43,336 nt of DNA from a virus (Duplodnaviria > Heunggongvirae > Uroviricota > Caudoviricetes): positions 1 through 43,336 of IMG/VR virus record IMGVR_UViG_2554235189_000011, one strand, 5' to 3'. Below the pieces are notes generated by a model that was not told the origin of the DNA, made no database searches, and saw only the letters and a program-made list of their open reading frames with translations. A program made the translations under genes and the position numbers. Below are positions 6,889 through 22,214 of this stretch, piece after piece; position 1 is the first letter of the stretch; each line of letters opens with the position of its first letter.

Positions 6889-7098
6889 ATGGGGCTGGAT
6901 TGCGTGCCTATATCAACCTACTGCCGCGACGCGGGAGAAACGGTTGATGCCGTTAACAAACGGATACAAAGAGGAATATGGAAAGAAGGGGTTCATGTAT
7001 TAAAAGTCGATGGAGTTAAAGAACGCTGGGTCGACTTAATAGAGGTTTCAAAATGGGCAAGAAAGAACAAGGATTATTATCTCTGCCAAGAGGAGTAA
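6889..7098 (+). CDS. xis: excisionase-like DNA-binding protein
   Basis: 69 aa immediately upstream of and overlapping int; ...RIQRGIWKEGVHVLKVDG... Xis-like motif. Confidence 0.65.
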   Translation: MGLDCVPISTYCRDAGETVDAVNKRIQRGIWKEGVHVLKVDGVKERWVDLIEVSKWARKNKDYYLCQEE

Positions 7099-8231
7099 CT
7101 ATTCGTAAGCATAAAACTGCTTCAACACTAGTTATCACTTTCACATATAAAGGGGTTCTTTGCAGGGAGCCCCTGTCTCGGCTTGAGGCAAATACACGTG
7201 GTATTAAATATGCTGAGCGCCTGCTAGGGGAGATACAAAATCAGATCGCCAGCGGAACGTTTGAATATGCGAAATATTTCCCCAGTTCCAAAAAACTGGA
7301 GTTATTCGGTATAGTAAAGAAAACCAAAAATATTAAGTCCTATCTTGATGAATACCTGAAAATTTGCATGAACCGCAATCTGTCGCCGTCAACCATTGGC
7401 GGTTACGAAAAATGTATATCAGCACTATCAGAGCTACATAAACTACATGTAACAGAATTGACGCCTGCGGTACTAAAAAATTGGATAGCCAGCCGAAAAA
7501 CTAAGCTGAAAACAATCAGGAATAACCTGTCATTTCTGCGCAGCGCCATTGATGAGGCTGTAACTGATGGCCTGTTGACTATTAACCCGGTAACTCTTGT
7601 CAGCGCCAGCCGGTATCACGTGGTCGACAGTAAACCGAACGCCGACGATTACGAAGTTGATCCGTTTGCGCCTGCGGAAACCAGTGCCATATATCAGCAC
7701 TGCAAGTATCAGGAATGGCAGAATCTGTTCCGCTTCGCCTTCAATACAGGGCTACGCAGCTCTGAGCTATGCGCATTACGTTGGACCGATATCGACTTTA
7801 TAGGTAATACAGCGCACATACAGGCGGCCAGTGTCGTAGGGGTACTTAAAGGCACCAAGACAAAAGCCGGTACCCGTAAGGTGGAGCTGAACAGTGAGGC
7901 TCTGGCGGCCCTGCAGGCGCAGAAGCAATACACCTTTATGAAAAGTGAGTTCATATTCAGCGATCCGAAAACGGGAGATCCCTGGACGAACGCCGACGCT
8001 ATCCGTAAAAAAGCATGGGTGCCGACCCTAAAAAAAGCTGGTGTGCGCTACCGTAACCCGTACCAGACGCGCCACACATTCGCCACCAGACACATTAGCC
8101 AGGGTGTAAACCTTTTCTGGCTTGCCGGGCAGATGGGGCATAAGGGGCCGGAAATGCTGTTCCGCAATTACGGTAAATACCTGGCTGAATACGACGGGAA
8201 AACCGCAATGGAAGCTGGAATGAAGAATTGA
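7053..8231 (+). CDS. int: tyrosine integrase
   Basis: 392 aa; C-terminal catalytic region with R...HxxR...Y (RHTFATRHISQG...GHKGPEMLFRNYGKY). Confidence 0.9.
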   Translation: MGKKEQGLLSLPRGVTIRKHKTASTLVITFTYKGVLCREPLSRLEANTRGIKYAERLLGEIQNQIASGTFEYAKYFPSSKKLELFGIVKKTKNIKSYLDEYLKICMNRNLSPSTIGGYEKCISALSELHKLHVTELTPAVLKNWIASRKTKLKTIRNNLSFLRSAIDEAVTDGLLTINPVTLVSASRYHVVDSKPNADDYEVDPFAPAETSAIYQHCKYQEWQNLFRFAFNTGLRSSELCALRWTDIDFIGNTAHIQAASVVGVLKGTKTKAGTRKVELNSEALAALQAQKQYTFMKSEFIFSDPKTGDPWTNADAIRKKAWVPTLKKAGVRYRNPYQTRHTFATRHISQGVNLFWLAGQMGHKGPEMLFRNYGKYLAEYDGKTAMEAGMKN

Positions 8232-8272: not shown

Positions 8273-9040
8273 TTATTCTGTCGCGCCACCTATCGAAACA
8301 TAATCATGAAATTGATCGTCAATGAGTCGGTCCTTACAGATAACATGTACAATGTGACGACAACAGTTTTCATCATCATACGCACGACCCCAGCGAACAA
8401 TCTCATCTACAGACAGATCATTCGCACTCCATGGCAAAGTACCTGAAACACCACGCGCACCTGGACCAAGTATGTCCATAAATTTCTTCGTGCGTGAATT
8501 GTAGATCCGTACCTCGGCAATTCGAATGATGCTACTAGCCCAAAGAGCACCACCGGCAATACTTTGAATGTTATCGCAGATGAGAAACTCATGCTTTCGC
8601 GCAAGCATTTTATAGATCTCACGCGCCAAACCTGCTGATTGGAAATCCTGTGCGATAACAGCGCTTTTCACTTGCTTTCCGGTCATCATCTGACCGTTCT
8701 CTTCGATAAAATTAAAGTCGTTGAACTGTATACGACCTATTCTTATCGTTTTGTTATCGTCTACCATATCAAGACCCAAGAGGGTATTGACCAGATCCTG
8801 CATTGGAACCTTCGAATCAAGAAGGTCACTGCCATAGTCTAAAAAAAAGTCGTCGGTGGAACATCCCAGTTGATACACATCCAAGTAGTACTGAAACTCA
8901 CCAGAACTGACAATGTACTCATCAGCCCTCAGTAAGCCAGCCTCGGCAGTGAAAAAATAGAATGACTCAATAAGACGTTTTTCGCCAAATGGCGTGATGT
9001 TCAAGTCCTTGTTATATGAAGGTATTAACGCAGGAGCCAT
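8273..9040 (-). CDS. hypothetical protein (distal gene of int-att cargo operon)
   Basis: 255-aa ORF; no confident motif; lower GC than phage core. Confidence 0.6.
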   Translation of the reverse strand: MAPALIPSYNKDLNITPFGEKRLIESFYFFTAEAGLLRADEYIVSSGEFQYYLDVYQLGCSTDDFFLDYGSDLLDSKVPMQDLVNTLLGLDMVDDNKTIRIGRIQFNDFNFIEENGQMMTGKQVKSAVIAQDFQSAGLAREIYKMLARKHEFLICDNIQSIAGGALWASSIIRIAEVRIYNSRTKKFMDILGPGARGVSGTLPWSANDLSVDEIVRWGRAYDDENCCRHIVHVICKDRLIDDQFHDYVSIGGATE

Positions 9041-9051
9041 TCAGCAACCTT

Positions 9052-9393
9052 TTAATGGTAGTTAATTTCCCTGTAGTTCTTCTGCATGTATAGAGCAATT
9101 GCCGCTTCAATTTTCTTCAGCAGATTACTGCTTACATACTGAGGATACTGATCTGCTGGCTTCACAACATAGCGCAATTTTTCTTTGTTCATGGCGATCT
9201 CAGCGAACGGGATCACGTCACCGTCACGAACCTCATTGTTCAATGTCACAATAAACAGCTGACGTGCCGGGGAGACACGATCACTCAGTCTTCTCACGAA
9301 GAACTCGTTTGCTGTGTTTGAGTCAACAAAAGAACTGACGAGTTGAGTCCGACGCTCAATCGTCTGTATCGATCTTCTCGCTACTGTTCTCAT
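9052..9393 (-). CDS. hypothetical protein (proximal gene of int-att cargo operon)
   Basis: 113-aa ORF 11 nt upstream of 8273-9040, same strand. Confidence 0.6.
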   Translation of the reverse strand: MRTVARRSIQTIERRTQLVSSFVDSNTANEFFVRRLSDRVSPARQLFIVTLNNEVRDGDVIPFAEIAMNKEKLRYVVKPADQYPQYVSSNLLKKIEAAIALYMQKNYREINYH

Positions 9394-9721
9394 GCTAGTC
9401 TCCTCAACACTTCACTAGCTGTGCAGTGAAGGTACAAAAAGCCACTGATGATAACAGCGTCATCAGTGGCCCTTGATGGTGATAACCGCAGTTATCTAAA
9501 TAGTATGATATTACCTTACGGGTAATTCTTCAACGATTGCTCTGAATTGAATAGTCTTGAAGTGCTATGAACAGCACAAAACAGCGCTAATCACCGCCCC
9601 AGTGGCGCCTAAACACTTCAAAATGTTGGACAGAATCAGGACGTTAGAAGCACTACAATATGCACGTAAAATGCACGTGAGGTATTTTAAATTAGAAAAA
9701 TCATTAATATTCAATTGGTTA

Positions 9722-9763
9722 AGAATTTTTCGGATACGGGTTCAACTCCCGCCAGCTCCACCA
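9722..9763 (+). other. att core: partial copy of the ssrA (tmRNA) 3' end
   Basis: AGAATTTTTCGGATACGGGTTCAACTCCCGCCAGCTCCACCA matches the recalled E. coli ssrA 3' end with a few mismatches; no tmRNA body upstream. Confidence 0.75.
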
Positions 9764-9893
9764 ATCATGATTGGACGGTGTAAGGACAACACCAACAAAA
9801 ACAGGAAGTTAGCAGTCTCAGCAGGACACCGACCAGACGGTGAGGAGACAAAAAAGGATACGCAAAGGAGCCGCGGCTCTCAAGTGTGAAAGA

Positions 9894-9928
9894 AGCCCGC
9901 AAATTGCGGGCTTTTTTATTGATCAGTC
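9894..9928 (+). terminator. rho-independent terminator
   Basis: AAGCCCGCAAATTGCGGGCTT hairpin followed by TTTTTTATT. Confidence 0.7.
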
Positions 9929-9972
9929 AACAATAAACAGTAACCGAATGAGAATTTAATAAGGATATTCAT

Positions 9973-11004
9973 ATGGAAGCTACTGTGGATTCGATTGATT
10001 TTCTGATCCGTAGTGAAGATGATTTTCTAAACTTTCTGGAAGAAATGAAAGCCCGAGAGGGGCTTGATTCTAAAGAGTTTATTTTCCCTAACGTAAAGTT
10101 TGCAGGCTGGCCATCCTTAGACATAAATGTTAAAGGAGAGCGGTATCATTCATCAATTACATCAGCAATGTTGTTTGGTATGTCAATGCTCAACGAGGAG
10201 ATACAGCGGGCGTTTGCAACCATACGATACGGATCGCAGAATCTTCAACGCTTGACTAATGAAGACAAGCAACGACTTGATATAAATTTTAAAATTAGCG
10301 AAGGTTCTAGTGATGCGGAAGGCACCACTGACAAGATCATCAACGCAGTAACTGATTTTTTGCGAGATACTATGTCTGGACTGAACGGCTGGCAGAAAAT
10401 GCTTGTTATAATCACAATGGTTGGCGCGGCCAGCACATGTGGTTATCACTACATTTCAGAAAATGCCGTAACAGAAAGACATGCAACTGATCGGCAGGTT
10501 GAAATTGCGAAAACCACATCCGATGGCATAAACAAAGCCATAGAAGCAACATTAGATTATAAAATCTATGGGAAATCAGCGATTAGCGATAAAGTTACTA
10601 GTCACGGACAAGCAGGTAAAAGTGCTTTAGTGAAGCAATTAGCTGCTGATCCTACTGTCGAAACCGTGACTTTAGGAAATGAGAAACTAACACGACAAGA
10701 CCTAAATACCTACAACAGCCGACAATCTGTAGATAGAGAACGTAAAGAACGAACTGATATATTTTCCATCAAAGGTGTAACCAGAACAGGGCCAACAAAT
10801 CAGGATATTAATATTAACGTTGTTAGGGTCTCTAATGACGAATGCTTCACAATCAAAGCTTCAGCTGATGTTATCACCCAAGATGAGTTGACAGCTATTG
10901 TTGACGCTTTGTCAAACAACTCTCATATTAAAATCAGTTACTTAGAGGTAATTGAAAAGGGTGCTGTTTCTATAGGTCAGTTCAACACTATTGTTTCAGA
11001 ATAA
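9973..11004 (+). CDS. hypothetical protein with central hydrophobic segment (low-GC cargo)
   Basis: 343-aa ORF; AAGGA RBS; hydrophobic stretch WQKMLVIITMVGAASTCGYHYI. Confidence 0.6.
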   Translation: MEATVDSIDFLIRSEDDFLNFLEEMKAREGLDSKEFIFPNVKFAGWPSLDINVKGERYHSSITSAMLFGMSMLNEEIQRAFATIRYGSQNLQRLTNEDKQRLDINFKISEGSSDAEGTTDKIINAVTDFLRDTMSGLNGWQKMLVIITMVGAASTCGYHYISENAVTERHATDRQVEIAKTTSDGINKAIEATLDYKIYGKSAISDKVTSHGQAGKSALVKQLAADPTVETVTLGNEKLTRQDLNTYNSRQSVDRERKERTDIFSIKGVTRTGPTNQDININVVRVSNDECFTIKASADVITQDELTAIVDALSNNSHIKISYLEVIEKGAVSIGQFNTIVSE

Positions 11005-11055
11005 TCACTTAACCCCATTTATGTAGGTTGAGGTTATAAGTCACGGAGACCAGAT

Positions 11056-11400
11056 ATGTCCTTAAAGTATGCACATGAAAAATTTCATACTGCAGTACTT
11101 ACTCTTGCGGGCCATGGAAGTATTCAAGAACGCTTGATTAATTCGTATGTTTTTAGCCTTGGGCATCTTAAAACAGCCGATGATATTCCAAATGCCTTAC
11201 AAAGCAGGTTCGATGAATTATGTAAGGAACTGACTAAGTTTGATGCCACTGGCGATGAGGGGCGAGTTCAAGCAACAGTATCAAAACTTAACGATTTCGA
11301 GATCAATAAACTGATCGAAGATATTGTCAGTCTTAACGATGATATTTGCATGAAATTGGCTCTGACGGATGAGACTTACCAAGACATACACCAAAGTTAA
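11056..11400 (+). CDS. hypothetical protein (low-GC cargo)
   Basis: 114-aa ORF downstream of 9973-11004. Confidence 0.55.
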   Translation: MSLKYAHEKFHTAVLTLAGHGSIQERLINSYVFSLGHLKTADDIPNALQSRFDELCKELTKFDATGDEGRVQATVSKLNDFEINKLIEDIVSLNDDICMKLALTDETYQDIHQS

Positions 11401-11895: not shown

Positions 11896-12450
11896 TTATT
11901 TATCTCCTGCCGGAAACCTCTGATACAAAGTCGATACGCCAACATCATAGATAATCGCAACTTTCTGGCGCGGAACTCCTGATGCAATTAATCGTCCGGC
12001 TTGTGCCCATTGTTCTGGTGTAAGTTTGGGACGACGTCCACCAATTCGTTCCTGTGCGCGAGCAGCTTCCAGTCCAGCTTTTGTTCGTTCAACAATCAGT
12101 TCTCGTTCCATTTCAGCCAGGGCCCCCATCACATGAAAGAAAAAGCGCCCCATTGGGGTACTGGTATCAATTGAATCCGTCAGACTACGAAAGTTGATGC
12201 CTCGTTCGCGCAACTCCTCCACCAGCACGACAAGATGCCGCATACTGCGCCCCAGCCGGTCCAGTTTCCAGACCACCAGCGTGTCACCTGCCGATAATGT
12301 CCTGAGCAGTTTTTTCAGTCCCGGCCTTTCGGACTTTGTACCGCTTATCTTGTCTTCAAAAATCAGCTCGCATCCTGCACAGTTCAGCGCATTACGTTGT
12401 AGATCTGTGTTCTGGTCATTTGTTGATACGCGTACATAGCCAATAAGCAT
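11896..12450 (-). CDS. pin: serine recombinase, DNA invertase (Pin/Gin/Hin/Cin family)
   Basis: Internal start MLIGYVRVSTNDQNTDLQRNAL...; 184 aa; close to recalled e14 PinE. Confidence 0.9.
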   Translation of the reverse strand: MLIGYVRVSTNDQNTDLQRNALNCAGCELIFEDKISGTKSERPGLKKLLRTLSAGDTLVVWKLDRLGRSMRHLVVLVEELRERGINFRSLTDSIDTSTPMGRFFFHVMGALAEMERELIVERTKAGLEAARAQERIGGRRPKLTPEQWAQAGRLIASGVPRQKVAIIYDVGVSTLYQRFPAGDK

Positions 12451-12504
12451 GGTAGATCCCCCTGACAAAAGCAGGAATGATGCCATTTGCTCGTTATTTC
12501 TGCA

Positions 12505-12530
12505 TTTCCATAAACGTTGGTTTGGGAGAA
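12505..12530. repeat. invertase crossover site (pix/gix-like), pin-proximal
   Basis: TTTCCATAAACGTTGGTTTGGGAGAA; 15 nt of its reverse complement are identical to the site at 14396-14421. Confidence 0.7.
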
Positions 12531-12998
12531 GGCTCTGCATTACCTGTTGGTGTGCCTGTTCCATGGCCTTCAGCCACACCGCCAACAGGCTGGCTGAAAT
12601 GCAACGGTGCGGCATTTTCTGCTGAAGAATACCCGGAACTGGCAAAGGCTTATCCAACAAATAAATTACCTGATTTACGCGGTGAGTTTATTCGTGGCTG
12701 GGATGACGGGCGCGGTATTGATGCAGGACGTGTTTTATTGAGTATTCAGGCCGGAATGCTGGAAAAGCACCGTCATCCTGTTGTCGCCAACGATGGGTAT
12801 GACTCAAAAGAGGAATGGGAACTGGCGACAATCTTCAGAAGAGCATATACGCAAGGCAGGGGGCTTGATGCTGCCGCTGCCGGAGGGAGTCTGATCCCAT
12901 CACCGACACTTCATTCACGAGGGAGTATCGGTAATACTGGCGGGAGTGAAACCCGTCCACGAAATATTGCATTTAACTATATCGTGAGGGCTGCATAA
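12531..12998 (+). CDS. alternative tail-fiber C-terminal variable segment, currently silent
   Basis: Start-less ORF beginning at the crossover site (...GLGE GSALPVGVPVPWPSATPPTGWLKCNGAAF...). Confidence 0.7.
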   Translation, partial: GSALPVGVPVPWPSATPPTGWLKCNGAAFSAEEYPELAKAYPTNKLPDLRGEFIRGWDDGRGIDAGRVLLSIQAGMLEKHRHPVVANDGYDSKEEWELATIFRRAYTQGRGLDAAAAGGSLIPSPTLHSRGSIGNTGGSETRPRNIAFNYIVRAA

Positions 12999-13708
12999 TG
13001 GATAACGCCGTATTAAATAGCGAGCTTATTACCACGAAGGCGGGGAATATTACCGTCTATAACTATGATGGTGAGACGCGGGAATATATTTCTGCATCAA
13101 CTGAATATCTTGCAGTGGGTGTCGGTATTCCAGCATATTCCTGTTTAGACGCTCCTGGTACATCTAAGGCTGGTTATACAATTTGCCGTTCTGTGGATTT
13201 AAAATCATGGGAATATGTGTCAGACCATCGCGGTGAAATCGTCTATAACACCGAAACGGGAGATGCCAAAGAAATCACAGCACTAGGCGACTATCCCGAA
13301 AATACAACCACTATCGCCCCGTTAACGCCATACGATAAATGGGATGGTGAAAAATGGGTGACAGATACTGAGGCACAACACGGTGCCGCAGTAGAAGCGG
13401 CAGAAGCACAGCGCCAGTCACTGATTGATGCAGCAATGGCTTCCATCAGTCTGATTCAACTGAAATTGCAGGCCGGACGTAAACTGACGCAGGCAGAAAC
13501 AACCAGACTTAACGCTGTGCTGGATTACATTGACGCGGTGACGGCAACAGATACCAGCACCGCGCCGGATGTCATCTGGCCTGAACTGCCGGAGGCGCAG
13601 GCCATTCAATATCTGGCGCACTGGAGGAATCAACCAGTTCCAGTGCGTCCAGATAATCCAGCCACAAATTATATTGCGCCAGTTCATCATCTTTCAGACG
13701 ACCAATAG
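12998..13708 (+). CDS. tail fiber assembly protein (alternative)
   Basis: 236 aa; conserved Tfa C-terminal motif ...LDYIDAVTATDTSTAPDVIWPELP. Confidence 0.75.
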   Translation: MDNAVLNSELITTKAGNITVYNYDGETREYISASTEYLAVGVGIPAYSCLDAPGTSKAGYTICRSVDLKSWEYVSDHRGEIVYNTETGDAKEITALGDYPENTTTIAPLTPYDKWDGEKWVTDTEAQHGAAVEAAEAQRQSLIDAAMASISLIQLKLQAGRKLTQAETTRLNAVLDYIDAVTATDTSTAPDVIWPELPEAQAIQYLAHWRNQPVPVRPDNPATNYIAPVHHLSDDQ

Positions 13709-14024
13709 CGGCTTTACCGGGCCATTGCTTACTGTTCATGTATTCGTTGGCTTGGTTAATTAGTAGCTGTCTTTCTGATTCAGTAATTTCAATAAGTTCT
13801 TCATGCGTGGGTGGAGGAATCTCTGCCCACGCAGGCAGCCCATCATCTCCGGCAATACGGATTTTTCCTTGTGGCGGTTCAGCCATAAACTCACTGATAA
13901 TATTTTGATTTACTTCCTTAGCGTCTGATAAATCCCATCCCTCTGATTTATATTTATCAATCATATCCACAGGGAAAAAAGCATTATGCCTTGCGCTATA
14001 AACATATTCGTTCATATAAATCAC
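13572..14024 (-). CDS. tail fiber assembly protein (expressed orientation)
   Basis: 150 aa; ...LDYLDALELVDSSSAPDIEWPAPP motif; convergent with the alternative tfa. Confidence 0.75.
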   Translation of the reverse strand: MIYMNEYVYSARHNAFFPVDMIDKYKSEGWDLSDAKEVNQNIISEFMAEPPQGKIRIAGDDGLPAWAEIPPPTHEELIEITESERQLLINQANEYMNSKQWPGKAAIGRLKDDELAQYNLWLDYLDALELVDSSSAPDIEWPAPPAVQAR

Positions 14025-17295: not shown

Positions 17296-18374
17296 CAGAA
17301 CGGGTCCTCCTGTACTCTGGCTTTTTTCTTTTTCCGCGCGCCGGGGTCTTCGGGTTCAGGCAGATAAGCATCAGGCGGGCCGACACGGATTTCCGTCAGG
17401 GTGCCGTTCTGGTCCTGAGTAAACGTGACTTCCGAAACAAGCAGTTCGGTATTGTCGAAACCACAGACCGGATCAAAGACAATCACCCGCTGGTTGGGCT
17501 GCCACAGCGTACCGTTACCCTGTCGCCAGCCCTGCACCACATAGGTGGTTTCATCCGTCCGCGCCGCCCGTTGCCGGGCTTCAAAGTCAGCACGCGCAAT
17601 ACAGCCAGCCCCCGTGGCCTGCCCTGTCTGCCTGATATACATCGGACGGTAACGGGCAATAAATGCGTCCTCTGTGCGGGCCCGCAGCGCGGTGGTGGTG
17701 GCCTCACCGAAATCATCGTCGTTTCCGGCACGCTGCCCCGCCACCTGGTAAACTGAAAACCGCTCCCGGATACTCTTCTCCGTATCGCAGGAAAGGATGT
17801 TTTCCCCAAGTACCAGCGCGGTATGTGCCCGCGTTGAGCCAATACCGCCAATCACCAGCCTGCCGTGCGGATCGTCGTAAGCCAGTGCCTGCTGCTGACC
17901 GAGTATTTTGTTGATCACCTCGATCACCGTTTCACCGTGATCAGGCTGGACATCAGGAATAACACCCGACGGCGCACCGCTGTTCACCACCTCAATGCCG
18001 AAAGGCGCAGTAAGCGCCTGCGCAATCTGTACCAGCGATCGTCCGTTAAACTGTGTCGGTTCGGCTGCACAGTCAATCAGGTCAGCGGTCAGACTGCGTC
18101 CGGCAATACCGGTGCTGACCGAACGGGCATCGTAACGAACGGGAGTCGCCTCCACCCAGCCGGTGATCACCAGCTCATCACCAATCAGCACTTCCACTTT
18201 TGAACCGTTTTTAATGCGCGGCTGAAGCGTGGTGATACCCTCATCTCCCGGCCACTGGCGGGTGATCTCCACACTGAAATCCCGCGCCAGCCGTTCAATA
18301 CCGGCACCGATGCGCACCGATGTCCAGCCATTCCACTCCCGGCCATTTACCCGTAGCGTGACGTTATCGTTCAT
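17295..18374 (-). CDS. Mu gp44-like baseplate hub protein
   Basis: 359 aa, synteny. Confidence 0.7.
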   Translation of the reverse strand: MNDNVTLRVNGREWNGWTSVRIGAGIERLARDFSVEITRQWPGDEGITTLQPRIKNGSKVEVLIGDELVITGWVEATPVRYDARSVSTGIAGRSLTADLIDCAAEPTQFNGRSLVQIAQALTAPFGIEVVNSGAPSGVIPDVQPDHGETVIEVINKILGQQQALAYDDPHGRLVIGGIGSTRAHTALVLGENILSCDTEKSIRERFSVYQVAGQRAGNDDDFGEATTTALRARTEDAFIARYRPMYIRQTGQATGAGCIARADFEARQRAARTDETTYVVQGWRQGNGTLWQPNQRVIVFDPVCGFDNTELLVSEVTFTQDQNGTLTEIRVGPPDAYLPEPEDPGARKKKKARVQEDPF

Positions 18375-19705
18375 TGCACTGGCACCTTCAGAGGGATCAC
18401 CGGCACAAAGCCGGGATGCGTAATGGCATTACGCCGGATAATGTCCGCGTCACGCGCCGCGTTATCAAACCAGGTCGCCGCCAGCACCAGCGCGGGTAAA
18501 ACCTCATCCGGTGTGCGCTGAATGATCCGTGCAGACTGTTCAAGGCGCGTGTTGATATCCGCATTCAGATCTGCTTTCACCCGGCGCAGCGCCAGAAACA
18601 GCGCATCACTGGTTGTACGGGACAACTCCTTATCAATTGCCGTATTCAGTGTGTCGCGAATGTCAGTCAGTTCTTCCCACGTCGGCAGATCAACCGTGTT
18701 TTTCACCGCCGGTGCATTGTTCAGTGCCGGATGCGTGACGGAAGGCCAGCCGGTGCTCTGCGCAGCTGTTGTTGCCTGCCCCACTGCGGCATTCTGCATC
18801 ACCGCGGAAGTTGTTGGCGCAGGCAATCGGGTGACGGCATACGCCGCTTCGCTGATTGCGGTCGTACGAAGGGTGCTGGCAACCACGTTACGCTGCTGCG
18901 TCGCCGTGGCGGTGGTTTTACTGTCCGTTTTCCAGACGCCGCGCGGTTGCAGATCGCTGCCGAGGCTGACACCGGAAAGCGTTTTGATCATGGTGACCAG
19001 GTCGCTGGCGTTACCATAAAGGCGTTTCCCGGTACGCCACATTTTCTGCACCTGCTCAACGAAATTTTTGCCTGACGATGGTGGCGGCAGAAGTACCGAG
19101 ATATCCCCCTGCAACAGCCTGGCAGCATCCGATACGGCAGAATCCACCACTTTCATCGCATCAGAAACATACCCAAGCATTGTGCTGGCATTACCGATAA
19201 CGTCGTTCTGCACAAAATCCGCCACGCCATCGATACTGAAACCGCTGAAGCTGTCACTGATGCAGTTATCCAGTGCAGAACAGGATGACATCAGCGTCTG
19301 CGCCGTCGCCGCACCTGATGTGGGGTAAGAGAGTTCTCCTGCTTCGACAAACTTCAGGTCAAAGCGGACAATACGCCCTTCACTTTTCGATGTGCTGACC
19401 CGAACTTCCCCGTCAACACAGACTTTCAGCTCACCGTATGTCGGATGGACAAGCGTGCCGGGACCGGGTTTATTCAGCGCGTCAATCAGGCGATCGCGCT
19501 GGTCAAAGCAGTCATCTCCCACCACATAAGCCGTGATGGACGGGCGAAAAGTGATTTTCCCCAGGTCTTCGGTATAGGGTTTGTCGCGGTTCGGGTATTC
19601 ATGTGTTTCCACACGGCGACCGGTTCCCGCACTTTCTTCTTCAACCTTAAACGGCACACCTCGAAATGACGCATCCTGAAGCCTGTCTTTCCACGTCATA
19701 TACAC
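18371..19705 (-). CDS. Mu gp43-like DNA circulation protein
   Basis: 444 aa; position after tape measure. Confidence 0.7.
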   Translation of the reverse strand: MYMTWKDRLQDASFRGVPFKVEEESAGTGRRVETHEYPNRDKPYTEDLGKITFRPSITAYVVGDDCFDQRDRLIDALNKPGPGTLVHPTYGELKVCVDGEVRVSTSKSEGRIVRFDLKFVEAGELSYPTSGAATAQTLMSSCSALDNCISDSFSGFSIDGVADFVQNDVIGNASTMLGYVSDAMKVVDSAVSDAARLLQGDISVLLPPPSSGKNFVEQVQKMWRTGKRLYGNASDLVTMIKTLSGVSLGSDLQPRGVWKTDSKTTATATQQRNVVASTLRTTAISEAAYAVTRLPAPTTSAVMQNAAVGQATTAAQSTGWPSVTHPALNNAPAVKNTVDLPTWEELTDIRDTLNTAIDKELSRTTSDALFLALRRVKADLNADINTRLEQSARIIQRTPDEVLPALVLAATWFDNAARDADIIRRNAITHPGFVPVIPLKVPVQ

Positions 19706-19719
19706 TCCGAAAATAAAAA

Positions 19720-19750
19720 AGCCACCTATTAGAAGGTGGCCTTGTAATGA
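19720..19750 (-). terminator. rho-independent terminator downstream of moron 19761-20291
   Basis: GCCACC-TATTAGAA-GGTGGC hairpin followed on minus strand by TTTTTTATTTT. Confidence 0.65.
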
Positions 19751-19760
19751 ATTTTATTAA

Positions 19761-20291
19761 TTAGCGAGTCAGAAACAACGAATCTTTATACTTTTGCTGT
19801 TGTTCATTTAAATACTTAGCTGTTTCATCGCTGGCAAATGGAAATATTACCGTATTTTTAGGCATGGTAATTTCTTTTTTGTCCAGCGTCAGAGTAAACA
19901 TAGGAACATACTGAGCAGAGTAACGCACCGCAGAAACGAGCTCTAGTTTAGACTCTTCAATAACACTTAAATTATCCAGGCTAACTTTCTCTTCATCTTT
20001 TTTCTTTGACGCATTTAAAGTTTTTATTACTTTATTTAATTTCTCCTGAAAATCCTCCTTAAAGTTTTCAGGATTGCCGTCGACAACAAGAATCTGTTCA
20101 CCCTGATTATCTGGAAAAATAATCTTTGCACTTATCAATTTATTTTCTTTATAAACATCACCAAGTTTTATGGCTCCTCCAGATAACTGAATAATATGTT
20201 CATCTTTAAAGGAGATGTTGCCAGAGATTATGAGAGATGAAAAAATAGCCGCTGCTCCAAGAATTACACTTGCTGTGATATAGCCTTTCAT
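19761..20291 (-). CDS. moron: secreted or membrane-anchored protein of unknown function
   Basis: 176 aa, N-terminal signal-like MKGYITASVILGAAAIFSSLIISG, very low GC; inserted between tape measure and gp43. Confidence 0.65.
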   Translation of the reverse strand: MKGYITASVILGAAAIFSSLIISGNISFKDEHIIQLSGGAIKLGDVYKENKLISAKIIFPDNQGEQILVVDGNPENFKEDFQEKLNKVIKTLNASKKKDEEKVSLDNLSVIEESKLELVSAVRYSAQYVPMFTLTLDKKEITMPKNTVIFPFASDETAKYLNEQQQKYKDSLFLTR

Positions 20292-20326
20292 TTTTCGCCT
20301 ATTAACATTTTTCTAAATGTGCATTA

Positions 20327-20354
20327 ATTCTATCACTCTATTTATGACTTACAA
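20327..20354 (-). promoter_or_regulatory. sigma70-like promoter candidate for the moron
   Basis: Minus strand TTGTAA-16 nt-TAGAAT upstream of 20291. Confidence 0.45.
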
Positions 20355-20382
20355 CCAGCAATACCTGTGAGGGGAATCCTGG

Positions 20383-22214
20383 CTACCAAAATCGGGTATA
20401 GCCAACATCGTGATTTATATCAATGCCACTGGAGCGTGTTTCCGTAACCCGCATACCTGATGGCATATTTATAAATGATACCTTGATCTCACCATCAACT
20501 TTTGGCGCGGTAGCTTTATTAATCATGAAAGGATTCGGGCCTGTGGCACCGGAGGCGTTGTTTGCCTGAGCCGGATCCACCTCCGGATAAGGAGTGTATC
20601 CCCGTGGCGGTATTCCCGTCCCATAAGCATCATAAGCACCCGCGCCCCACTGCGCCGAGTTAATGGCATCGACCGTGTCACCGGAACTGTCGGTAAACCA
20701 TTCAATAATCGGCTTCAGCTTATCCCACATATCCTGAAACCACTTAACAACCGGTCCCCAGTTATTGATCACCATCCCCAGCGGCGACCAGGCAAAAACC
20801 TTCTTCAGAAGTTCCCAGCCAGCCTCAAAATAAGGACTAATGGTTTCCCAGAGTTTCTTAAAATAAGGTCCGACAACATCCCAGTTAGTGATAATTAATC
20901 CCGCAGCCAAGGCAATCGCCGTCGCAATCATGCCAATCGGCGTCATCGACATGATCCTGCTGACGATACTGATGGCACTGCCCACGCCCATCAATCCCAG
21001 TTTCAGAATCGCAAGACCGGCAGCAAGCCCGACGACGCCGCGAATAACCCGGGGATTTTCATCCGCAAACTTCGTGAATTTTTCCCCTAACTCCCCCAGC
21101 CATTGCGTGATATTTTTGGCGTCACCAGAAAATGCGCCGCCAATAGCCGCAAGGCCGTTAGTTGCGGTCCCCGTCATTGCCTCCCACAGGTTGGACAGCG
21201 TACCAAGCTGTGCCTGAACACGTTTATTCAGGCTGGCCTGTTTATTCATCTTCTGCTGGATCTGATCGTAGCCATCCTTTCCTTTATCGATCAGCGCATT
21301 GACCACCTGAAGGGTTTCGGCATCATCACCAAATATTGCCTTAAGTACACCAGTTCGTTTAACGTCGGTCAGTTTTCGCAGCTTTGCCAGTTGCCTGAAC
21401 ATGTTATCAAGACCGCCAAAACTCCCTTTGCCGTCAGTAAAATCGAGCTGTACCCCGAGTTTCTGGCGGGCCATGATTTTATTGACGTCCCTGATTTTCT
21501 TAACGCTTAATCCGGACTGGATAACTTTTCGCAGGGCGTTACCTGCCGACTCCCCGTTCATCCCCATCTGATCCATCATGACGCTGATGGGGCAAGGCTC
21601 TGTGCAGCCTGAAGACCGTCCTTGTTCACCATCTTCAGAACAGAGCTGGTTTTAGTGAAGAATGACAGCATGTTGGTGTCGTCAACGCCCAGATAAAACG
21701 CCTTCTGAATTGTGTCGAACAGCCCCATCATGTCTTCTGAGGCCGTTCCGGTAGCATCCTGCATCTTTGCGGCAAACTCGGCAGCCGCTTCCGGTGTTTT
21801 TTTCAGTTGTACCGCAAGATAAGCTGTCGCTTTACCCACACCACCCAGAATGTTTTCTGCCGGGATCCCCTGACGCACCAGCATCTGCATCATGTTCTGG
21901 AAATCAGCCGTTGTACCGGGTAGCTGGTTACCCAGGCCAATAGCCAGTTTATTGATGTCCTGAAAGCTCTTTCCAACCTCGCCGTTCGCATCCATCATGG
22001 CGACTTTCAGCCCGGTAGCGGCGTTTTCCTGATCGGCATAAGATTTCAGGGAAAGCGTCAGCCCCGCTGCCAGTCCGCCACCAAGCGCCAGCCCAGCCTG
22101 TGACGCTTCTTCCGCCTGGCGTTTAAATCCCCGGATTTTCTTTTGCATTTTCGACAGCGCGGGAGAAAGCCTGTCGACACCGGTGATCAACGCCTTAAGC
22201 TCAAATTCAGCCAT
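20383..22214 (-). pseudogene. tail tape measure protein, split into two ORFs by an apparent 1-nt frameshift
   Basis: N-terminal ORF 21576-22214 (212 aa) and C-terminal ORF 20383-21579 (398 aa) overlap as TCATGATG; reading through in the second frame gives ...SLAPISVMMDQMG...; G4 run at 21589-21592. Confidence 0.7.

Follow-up and report, generated by a model that had tools for sequence, protein, structure and literature searches.

Among morons that lie next to a tape-measure gene, one example has been studied well, namely gp15 of phage HK97 (Juhala et al. 2000; Cumby et al. 2012). It was the first moron to be described, and its product, a protein of the inner membrane, prevents entry of the genome, with the tail region governing its specificity (reviewed in PMC3594210). 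SieA of phage P22, as well as the Gram-positive proteins Sie2009 and Ltp, act similarly to gp15, and SieA, with 162-164 amino acids (aa), is near in size to the protein considered here (PMC10883804). In the present work, an open reading frame (ORF) of 176 aa (19761..20291, minus strand, ATG start) was analyzed in the IMG/VR virus record IMGVR_UViG_2554235189_000011, of which the whole stretch of 43,336 nucleotides (nt) is referred to below as the window. The ORF, a member of PHROG 5485, is located between a tape-measure gene and a gene similar to gp43 of phage Mu, and is best explained as a single-gene accessory cassette, a moron in the sense of Hendrix, occupying a polymorphic slot of an SfV-like prophage. 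What is new in this case is the definition of the junction between the tape-measure and hub genes as a multi-cargo slot, together with the outline of an uncharacterised family of predicted periplasmic proteins, which is different from gp15, much larger, and without a characterised member.

A polymorphic slot at the tape-measure/hub junction

Based on megablast matches (SfV, SfI, SfII, SfIV and SKA5), the window corresponds to an SfV/SfI/SfII-like temperate phage genome of Escherichia coli, and the Pfam and PHROG assignments of neighboring genes showed lambdoid regulation combined with a Mu-like contractile tail module on the minus strand. The tape-measure gene forms the upstream flank of the ORF (20383..22214, minus strand; both halves match PF10145; phrog_17727/28), and the downstream flank is the Mu gp43/N-like baseplate hub or DNA circularisation gene (DNA_circ_N; 18371..19699, minus strand; PF07157, E 6e-34; phrog_184), for which the ATG at 19699, with GGAG ahead of it, is the probable start, as annotated in other records. 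A preliminary description of this DNA had placed a 176-aa ORF of very low guanine-plus-cytosine (GC) content between these two genes, and was accurate in its coordinates. The cassette as a whole spans 19720..20382 (minus strand); it begins just past the stop codon of the tape-measure gene, extends to the T-run ahead of the gp43-like gene, and takes the place of a spacer of approximately 43 nt that separates the two otherwise adjacent flanking genes in SfV, SfI, SfII and vB_EcoM-689R6. When the window was aligned with SfV, SfII and SKA5, homology ended at the tape-measure stop codon and resumed at TTTTTTAT, the T-run that precedes the ribosome-binding site of the gp43-like gene. Moreover, the ORF has a GC content of 34.3% (30% at third codon positions) compared with 52-60% in its flanks, and segments of 400 nt placed over it have 33-34% GC vs. 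52-62% in the rest of the structural region (14.4-32.4 kb), this being the sole strong GC dip within those 18 kb. As in other morons, the gene is absent between adjacent genes in relatives, deviates in GC content, and is followed by a terminator of its own, the nature of which is considered below.

The tape-measure/gp43 junction was found in 1093 of 5426 complete E. coli genomes (~20%), and 175 of these 1093 genomes carry the window-type cargo. A sample of 48 evenly spaced E. coli junctions with both flanks was then classified. The slot was empty in 28 of them (~58%; 681-bp span), and held the 176-aa window-type cargo, with its N-terminal membrane helix or signal, in 10. The remaining junctions contained an antisense gene for a 148-aa OB-fold or tRNA_anti-like protein (PF12869) that has a membrane segment at its N-terminus (5/48), a 125-aa bPH_1 protein (PF08000) with no export signal (2/48), a 225-aa lipoprotein with the lipobox LLGGC (2/48), or the 170-aa SKA5-type protein, which has a signal peptide (1/48). 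In phage SKA5, the 170-aa gene found at this junction (phrog_8976) is unrelated to the window ORF. The four non-window cargo types were seen at loci L021 (bPH_1), L022/L024 (OB-fold), L023 (lipoprotein) and L001 (SKA5 type), which comprise junctions from E. coli and from phage SKA5. All slot cargos were low in GC (31-42%) and four of the five types had an export or anchor signal, while no PADLOC match was obtained for any of the five (for the 176-aa protein, none at E ≤ 1 in PADLOC-DB 2.0). The slot is polymorphic, with at least five alternative and unrelated single-gene cargos; the earlier statement that this position is free of accessory genes does not hold for this phage group. The view of the gene as an add-on to the tail operon, and not a tail component, was in turn borne out by its absence from the four phages named above and from the empty junctions of the sample. 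The OB-fold cargo, being antisense to the operon, needs a promoter of its own, which indicates that the slot hosts autonomous units.

Within E. coli, diversity of the cassette was 0.36%, about six-fold lower than the 2.3-2.4% found in the adjoining 900 nt on each side, pointing to a younger common ancestor and to a history separate from that of the flanks. The cargo-bearing prophages occur in E. coli from many animal and clinical sources. That the cassette is accessory and encodes an envelope protein is considered very probable.

The encoded protein and its family

The 176-aa protein matched phrog_5485 over its full length (residues 1-176 to profile positions 1-176, E 3.8e-108). A profile search of 1.8 billion representatives resulted in 79 family clusters, with proteins mostly of 170-195 aa and the family motifs G.V.LG.VY.E and Y.SE..P.F.L.L. 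Among 75 near-identical copies from IMG/VR, there were 14 synonymous vs. 9 mostly conservative non-synonymous polymorphic sites, and only one copy was frameshifted; the gene is under purifying selection. A chance ORF was ruled out by conservation, coding constraint, and the confident fold described below. A weak Shine-Dalgarno-like AGGCG, read from the sequence, is located 6 nt 5' of the ATG (20296..20300, minus strand, with AGG at 20298..20300).

The N-terminus contains one hydrophobic stretch (mean Kyte-Doolittle value of 2.1 over 19 residues) with Lys2 ahead of it, and AlphaFold predicted a helix at codons 3-22 (20226..20285, minus strand), which may represent a signal anchor, or else an uncleaved or cleaved Sec signal. 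Each of the 39 aligned members of the family has a single hydrophobic stretch, at its N-terminus, and no further one, with Lys or Arg preceding the stretch in 36 of the 39. No Cys is present anywhere in the 176-aa protein, so that it has no lipobox and is not a lipoprotein, in agreement with the signal or anchor sequence without lipobox that had been proposed earlier. The AlphaFold2 model obtained from the 39-sequence alignment (predicted local distance difference test, pLDDT, of 89.8) consisted, in this order, of helix 3-22, a short linker, a beta-hairpin, a pair of strands, a long helix, a further pair of strands that are long, and another long helix. According to this model, residues ~28-176 of the approximately 20-kDa protein would form a compact alpha/beta sandwich on a very short tether.

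The sole significant structural match was a 144-aa lipoprotein of the virulent Pseudomonas phage ventosus (E 2e-6; MG018930.1, 51995..52429, minus strand, corresponding to L020:1995-2429), which showed the same predicted fold and the family motif, with a lipobox Cys directly ahead of this motif. The ventosus gene is located in a non-structural region, near a putative anti-sigma factor gene. The same domain would thus be held by a membrane helix in one case and by a lipid in the other, which argues for a periplasm-facing location. An Rz-type i-spanin was also considered and rejected: only the anchor is common to both, the domain is mixed alpha/beta without Cys, and the gene belongs to the tail operon, separate lysis genes being present in the window (33.8-35.2 kb).

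Searches for characterised relatives gave negative results throughout. The window protein had no Pfam match at E ≤ 0.1 and none in NCBIfam, and its 39 relatives had only scattered single Pfam matches at E ≤ 0.01, with no common family. No relative was found by sequence and profile searches of PDB, and tblastn against 50,697 phage genomes gave no match. A literature search on the RefSeq accession and on the slot found nothing for PHROG 5485. With respect to the Bor/Lom/Cor-type exclusion proteins mentioned in the preliminary description, the comparison yielded no match; Pfam and PHROG scans returned only families of unknown function, and thus neither Bor, Lom, Cor, Imm, SieB or SimC nor a PHROG family annotated as exclusion, and P1 SimC compared with the family profile had an hhalign probability of 0.2.

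In other hosts, homologues with 52-59% identity occupy the same slot in Leclercia, Lelliottia and Citrobacter prophages and in metagenomic contigs, and homologues with 30-41% identity occupy it in Mangrovibacter, Lonsdalea, Edwardsiella and one unassigned contig. Cargo identity was 53-55% where the sheath protein was 75% identical, and 30-37% where the sheath was 62-68% identical. The cargo therefore co-diverges with tail proteins between genera, so that in some lineages it is an old resident of the slot and not only a recent insertion, and its gene evolves faster than those of most structural proteins. At the homologous loci, GC content of the gene was 34-42% vs. 51-57% in the flanks, remaining low in every context examined. 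Across Enterobacterales the family was found almost only within phage late or tail modules, always on the strand of the host operon, both in tail modules and in the Q/holin context. The family is not tied to the tape-measure/gp43 slot: a distant relative in a Citrobacter farmeri prophage is located directly after the Q antiterminator gene and before the holins (L014:6001-6540), and in another contig a member was found within a different tail module, of myovirus type, amid its hub and spike genes. The Q/holin position is the one at which lambdoid morons classically occur. A conserved partner gene was not detected, the neighbors in the Lonsdalea, Citrobacter and L016 loci being mutually unrelated, and IMG/VR searches with single distant family members gave no related loci.

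Additional genes were observed around some of these homologues. In Lonsdalea (L015:6637-7330), two small ORFs, of 119 aa (phrog_4293) and 83 aa (XhlA/hemolysin-like), are located between the family gene and DNA_circ_N. Leclercia-type prophages carry an extra pair of ORFs (503-507 and 94 aa) between the DNA_circ_N and gp44-like genes (L004:8013-9808, L011:8012-9819, L005:8013-9820), with no Pfam match, which is a further cargo slot one gene downstream.

The distribution of the family bears on whether the protein could be a non-essential tail-assembly or virion-associated accessory, for example working with the tape measure or the hub. In several genera the gene keeps its place beside the tape-measure gene, in the same orientation and separated by short gaps, the protein co-diverges with tail proteins, and a member also occurs amid hub and spike genes in a different myovirus-type tail, all of which would suit such a role. 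Yet the gene is lacking in plaque-forming SfV, SfI and SfII and apparently in most prophages of the type, it is interchangeable at the slot with unrelated exported proteins, and one relative is placed after Q, outside any tail module; moreover, the export or anchor signal and the lipoprotein relative locate the domain beyond the cytoplasm, in a place where no tail assembly occurs. We regard a tail accessory as very unlikely. An essential tail component was ruled out, based on the absence of the gene from viable relatives and on the export signal.

The same distribution is relevant for a role in lysogenic conversion without phage exclusion, in which the protein would alter envelope physiology, stress tolerance or host interaction, serving the host as Bor and Lom do. 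The predicted envelope targeting, the variety of animal and clinical sources of the cargo-bearing E. coli, and the lack of similarity to known defence proteins are consistent with this role. On the contrary, confinement of the family almost entirely to phage late and tail modules and its co-divergence with tail proteins speak against it, as do the lack of Bor/Lom homology and of a lipobox; besides, a virulent phage, such as the one carrying a relative, gains nothing from host virulence traits. A conversion factor of this kind seems quite improbable.

Transcription and proposed function

A candidate sigma-70 promoter (TTGTAA-16-TAGAAT with a TG extension, a 9/12 match; 20327..20354, minus strand) precedes the ORF. 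The promoter motif reported in the preliminary description is present, but it is no better than chance: the scan detected 3 such sites per 1.5 kb vs. 2.5 expected, an equal match was obtained in approximately 30% of shuffled 130-nt upstream regions, and the motif occurred in 3 of 9 family loci, which is the chance rate, not being conserved among homologues. As for the terminator that had been attributed to the cassette, it is strong, but not specific to it. The hairpin (19708..19743, minus strand) has a 10-bp stem (19743..19718) and a 6-nt loop followed by UUUUUUAUUUU, with a folding energy of -15.6 kcal/mol (z = -5.8), and none of 200 shuffles folded equally well. A hairpin followed by TTTTTTAT-N4-5-GGAG right before the gp43-like start was also found in the empty junctions of SfV and SfII and in those with SKA5-type, bPH and lipoprotein cargos, with stem sequences that differ between empty junctions and cargo types. 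It is present after four of the five cargo types, including that of the window, and in the SfII record it is annotated as a putative rho-independent terminator. Since an equivalent hairpin occurs in empty junctions, the terminator is not specific to this cargo, and belongs to the junction. Among the family loci examined, a strong downstream hairpin with a U-run was present at all except the Citrobacter Q/holin locus and Lonsdalea. Searches in Rfam resulted only in sub-threshold leader-like matches, due to the terminator hairpin.

The terminator scan of the window gave no site between the tape-measure gene and the ORF. With no terminator preceding it, the gene would necessarily be within the Q-antiterminated late transcript during lytic growth. 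A Q-type antiterminator is encoded in the window (35778..36572, minus strand; PF03589, E 5e-54), as well as in the prophage of strain EC1515. By means of Q, late transcripts would read through the hairpin, while transcripts that are not antiterminated would stop there.

Based on these features, the following mechanism is proposed by analogy with HK97 gp15, both for expression in the lysogen and for the exclusion function. The protein would be inserted into, or exported across, the inner membrane via its one N-terminal helix, with the alpha/beta domain tethered at the periplasmic face. This domain would bind the injection apparatus of an incoming phage (tape-measure or hub proteins from the tail tube) or a host factor needed by it, blocking genome entry and resulting in superinfection exclusion after adsorption. 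During lytic growth the gene would be carried on the Q-antiterminated late transcript, while in the lysogen transcription starting inside the AT-rich cassette would stop at the strong hairpin, so that the baseplate genes would stay silent. The probability of superinfection exclusion at the DNA-entry step by a lysogen-expressed protein is estimated at roughly 0.4; that the protein acts in phage exclusion, in the lysogen or in late infection combined, is rather probable. Exclusion at the DNA-entry step is the most economical reading. It is in line with the co-divergence with tail proteins, which would be consistent with a protein adapted to the tail type of its own phage, with the fact that exported proteins are enriched at the slot, and with the existence of a relative in a virulent phage. 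More generally, the evidence shows an accessory, independently evolving protein that is targeted to the envelope, with its fold and topology being predicted.

Several observations weigh against lysogen-expressed exclusion. The candidate promoter is a chance-level motif, statistically unsupported, and at locus L017 the upstream gap is only about 34 nt, so that the gene may be expressed late only. H-NS often silences AT-rich genes in E. coli, and expression in the lysogen would be limited by it. The N-terminal segment of 24 residues, with I-S-G before Asn25, might be cleaved, although the hydrophobic core is a long one. Of the 10 genomes with the window cargo, 2 had the junction in a second copy vs. 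4 of the 38 two-flank matches without it, which gives no sign of exclusion among like prophages in this small sample, where either copy may have been acquired first. Finally, no homology to known exclusion proteins was found.

The main rival is a late gene whose product would have the same envelope location and block entry or re-adsorption, being made only in lytic growth and serving no purpose in the lysogen. Its effect would be to spare the producing cell a superinfection, or to keep progeny from being wasted on infected or lysed cells, like T5 Llp or T4 Imm/Sp. In favor of this rival, the operon strand is the one that carries the gene in all cases, with no terminator site before it in the window, its promoter motif is at chance level and not conserved, the gap at L017 leaves little room upstream, the relative in the virulent phage is in a non-structural region, and the Citrobacter copy, just downstream of Q, would be transcribed upon antitermination. 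However, low GC content and a strong terminator bracket agree with independently expressed morons, and the antisense OB-fold cargo shows that the slot hosts autonomous units. In addition, a C-run near 21588 in the tape-measure gene of the window has lost 1 nt when compared with strain EC1515 and SfV, in which the tape measure is one ORF of about 611 aa, and this deletion splits the gene into ORFs of 212 and 398 aa. The split reflects either a defective prophage or a homopolymer sequencing error; the cargo ORF is intact beside the broken gene, which is weak evidence of retention at the host level. A gene acting in lytic growth only is considered unlikely, the conversion and tail-accessory roles described above being weaker rivals than this one.

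Going beyond lysogen-expressed exclusion by this one protein, the tape-measure/hub junction could be a dedicated hotspot for single-gene, envelope-targeted anti-phage cargo of at least five unrelated families. Within it, the 176-aa family would represent a new entry-blocking class, with a transmembrane helix as its anchor in temperate phages and a lipid in a virulent one, and would co-evolve with the tail module, the tape measure or hub of its own tail type being the target. This extended proposal is doubtful, and is put forward tentatively. The slot belongs to a prophage type present in about 20% of complete E. coli genomes, and most of its alternative cargos are exported. If entry is indeed blocked, new exclusion proteins could be drawn from the slot, which would be a compact source and easy to clone, with a bearing on host-range prediction in phage therapy and on how contractile-tail phages cross the periplasm; if it is not, this would be an ordinary hypothetical prophage gene.

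Other features of the window and comparison with described systems

Further features were observed in other segments of the window. A second low-GC slot (39-41% GC; 35257..35592, minus strand) is located between Q and the holin gene (34800..35204), the position taken in C. farmeri by the distant relative mentioned above, and contains a 111-aa ORF of unknown function (phrog_13663) with no Pfam match. Between the lysis and terminase genes, a stretch of 37% GC (32775..33801, plus strand) has ORFs of 117 and 209 aa that run antisense to the late operon; also with no Pfam match, they probably constitute another autonomous cargo unit. Next to the integrase gene (7053..8231), where SfV-type phages carry the O-antigen-modifying gtr genes, the counterpart region of the window (8273..11400) has low-GC ORFs with no Pfam match, of 255 and 113 aa on the minus strand and of 343 and 114 aa on the plus strand. 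Finally, a Gin/Pin-type serine invertase gene (Resolvase and HTH_7 domains) lies beside oppositely oriented tail-collar and tail-fibre-assembly genes (11896..14024), an arrangement that is an invertible host-range switch like the G segment of Mu.

With regard to the slot, the closest comparison is with the cargo and defence hotspots of the temperate phages P2 and P4, reportedly described by Rousset and colleagues in 2022. In the junction analyzed here there is no known defence match, the cargos are single small genes, mostly envelope-targeted, and the slot is inside the tail operon, unlike in those hotspots. What they have in common is a fixed junction of conserved phage genes at which alternative, unrelated, low-GC cargos are found in otherwise similar prophages.

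With regard to the protein, the outer-membrane conversion or exclusion proteins Bor and Lom of lambda, Cor (of HK022, N15 and phi80) and T5 Llp are, like the window protein, products of accessory phage or prophage genes that are exported to the envelope, and Cor and Llp exclude phages; the window protein's family also has a lipoprotein-anchored relative, that of phage ventosus. In contrast with this group, the window protein contains no Cys, is not predicted to fold as a beta-barrel, and has no Pfam match to Bor, Lom or Cor, and its short inner-membrane tether could not reach outer-membrane receptors unless the domain were cleaved and released. A second group comprises the inner-membrane exclusion proteins SieA, lactococcal Sie2009, T4 Imm and Sp, and P1 SimC, which are also small phage-encoded envelope proteins and act after adsorption against DNA entry. 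Pfam and PHROG scans gave no homology to this group either. Sie2009-type proteins have an N-terminal anchor and an external domain. The genes of this second group belong to early or immunity regions rather than to the tail operon, and SieA has three predicted transmembrane segments vs. one in the window protein.

HK97 gp15 differs in several respects. It belongs to the YebO family, while the window protein has no Pfam match, gp15 itself not having been compared directly. Its gene is upstream of the tape-measure gene in a siphovirus, while the window gene is downstream of it in a contractile Mu-like tail module. The window protein has, in addition, a predicted folded periplasmic domain of about 150 aa, and gp15 is much smaller. 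The description in PMC3594210 says only "small protein". Exclusion and expression in the lysogen have been shown for gp15, and are proposed by analogy in the present case. In both systems, nevertheless, a single-gene addition to the tail operon, of deviant composition and with a terminator after it, is placed beside the tape-measure gene and encodes a membrane protein with one N-terminal hydrophobic segment.

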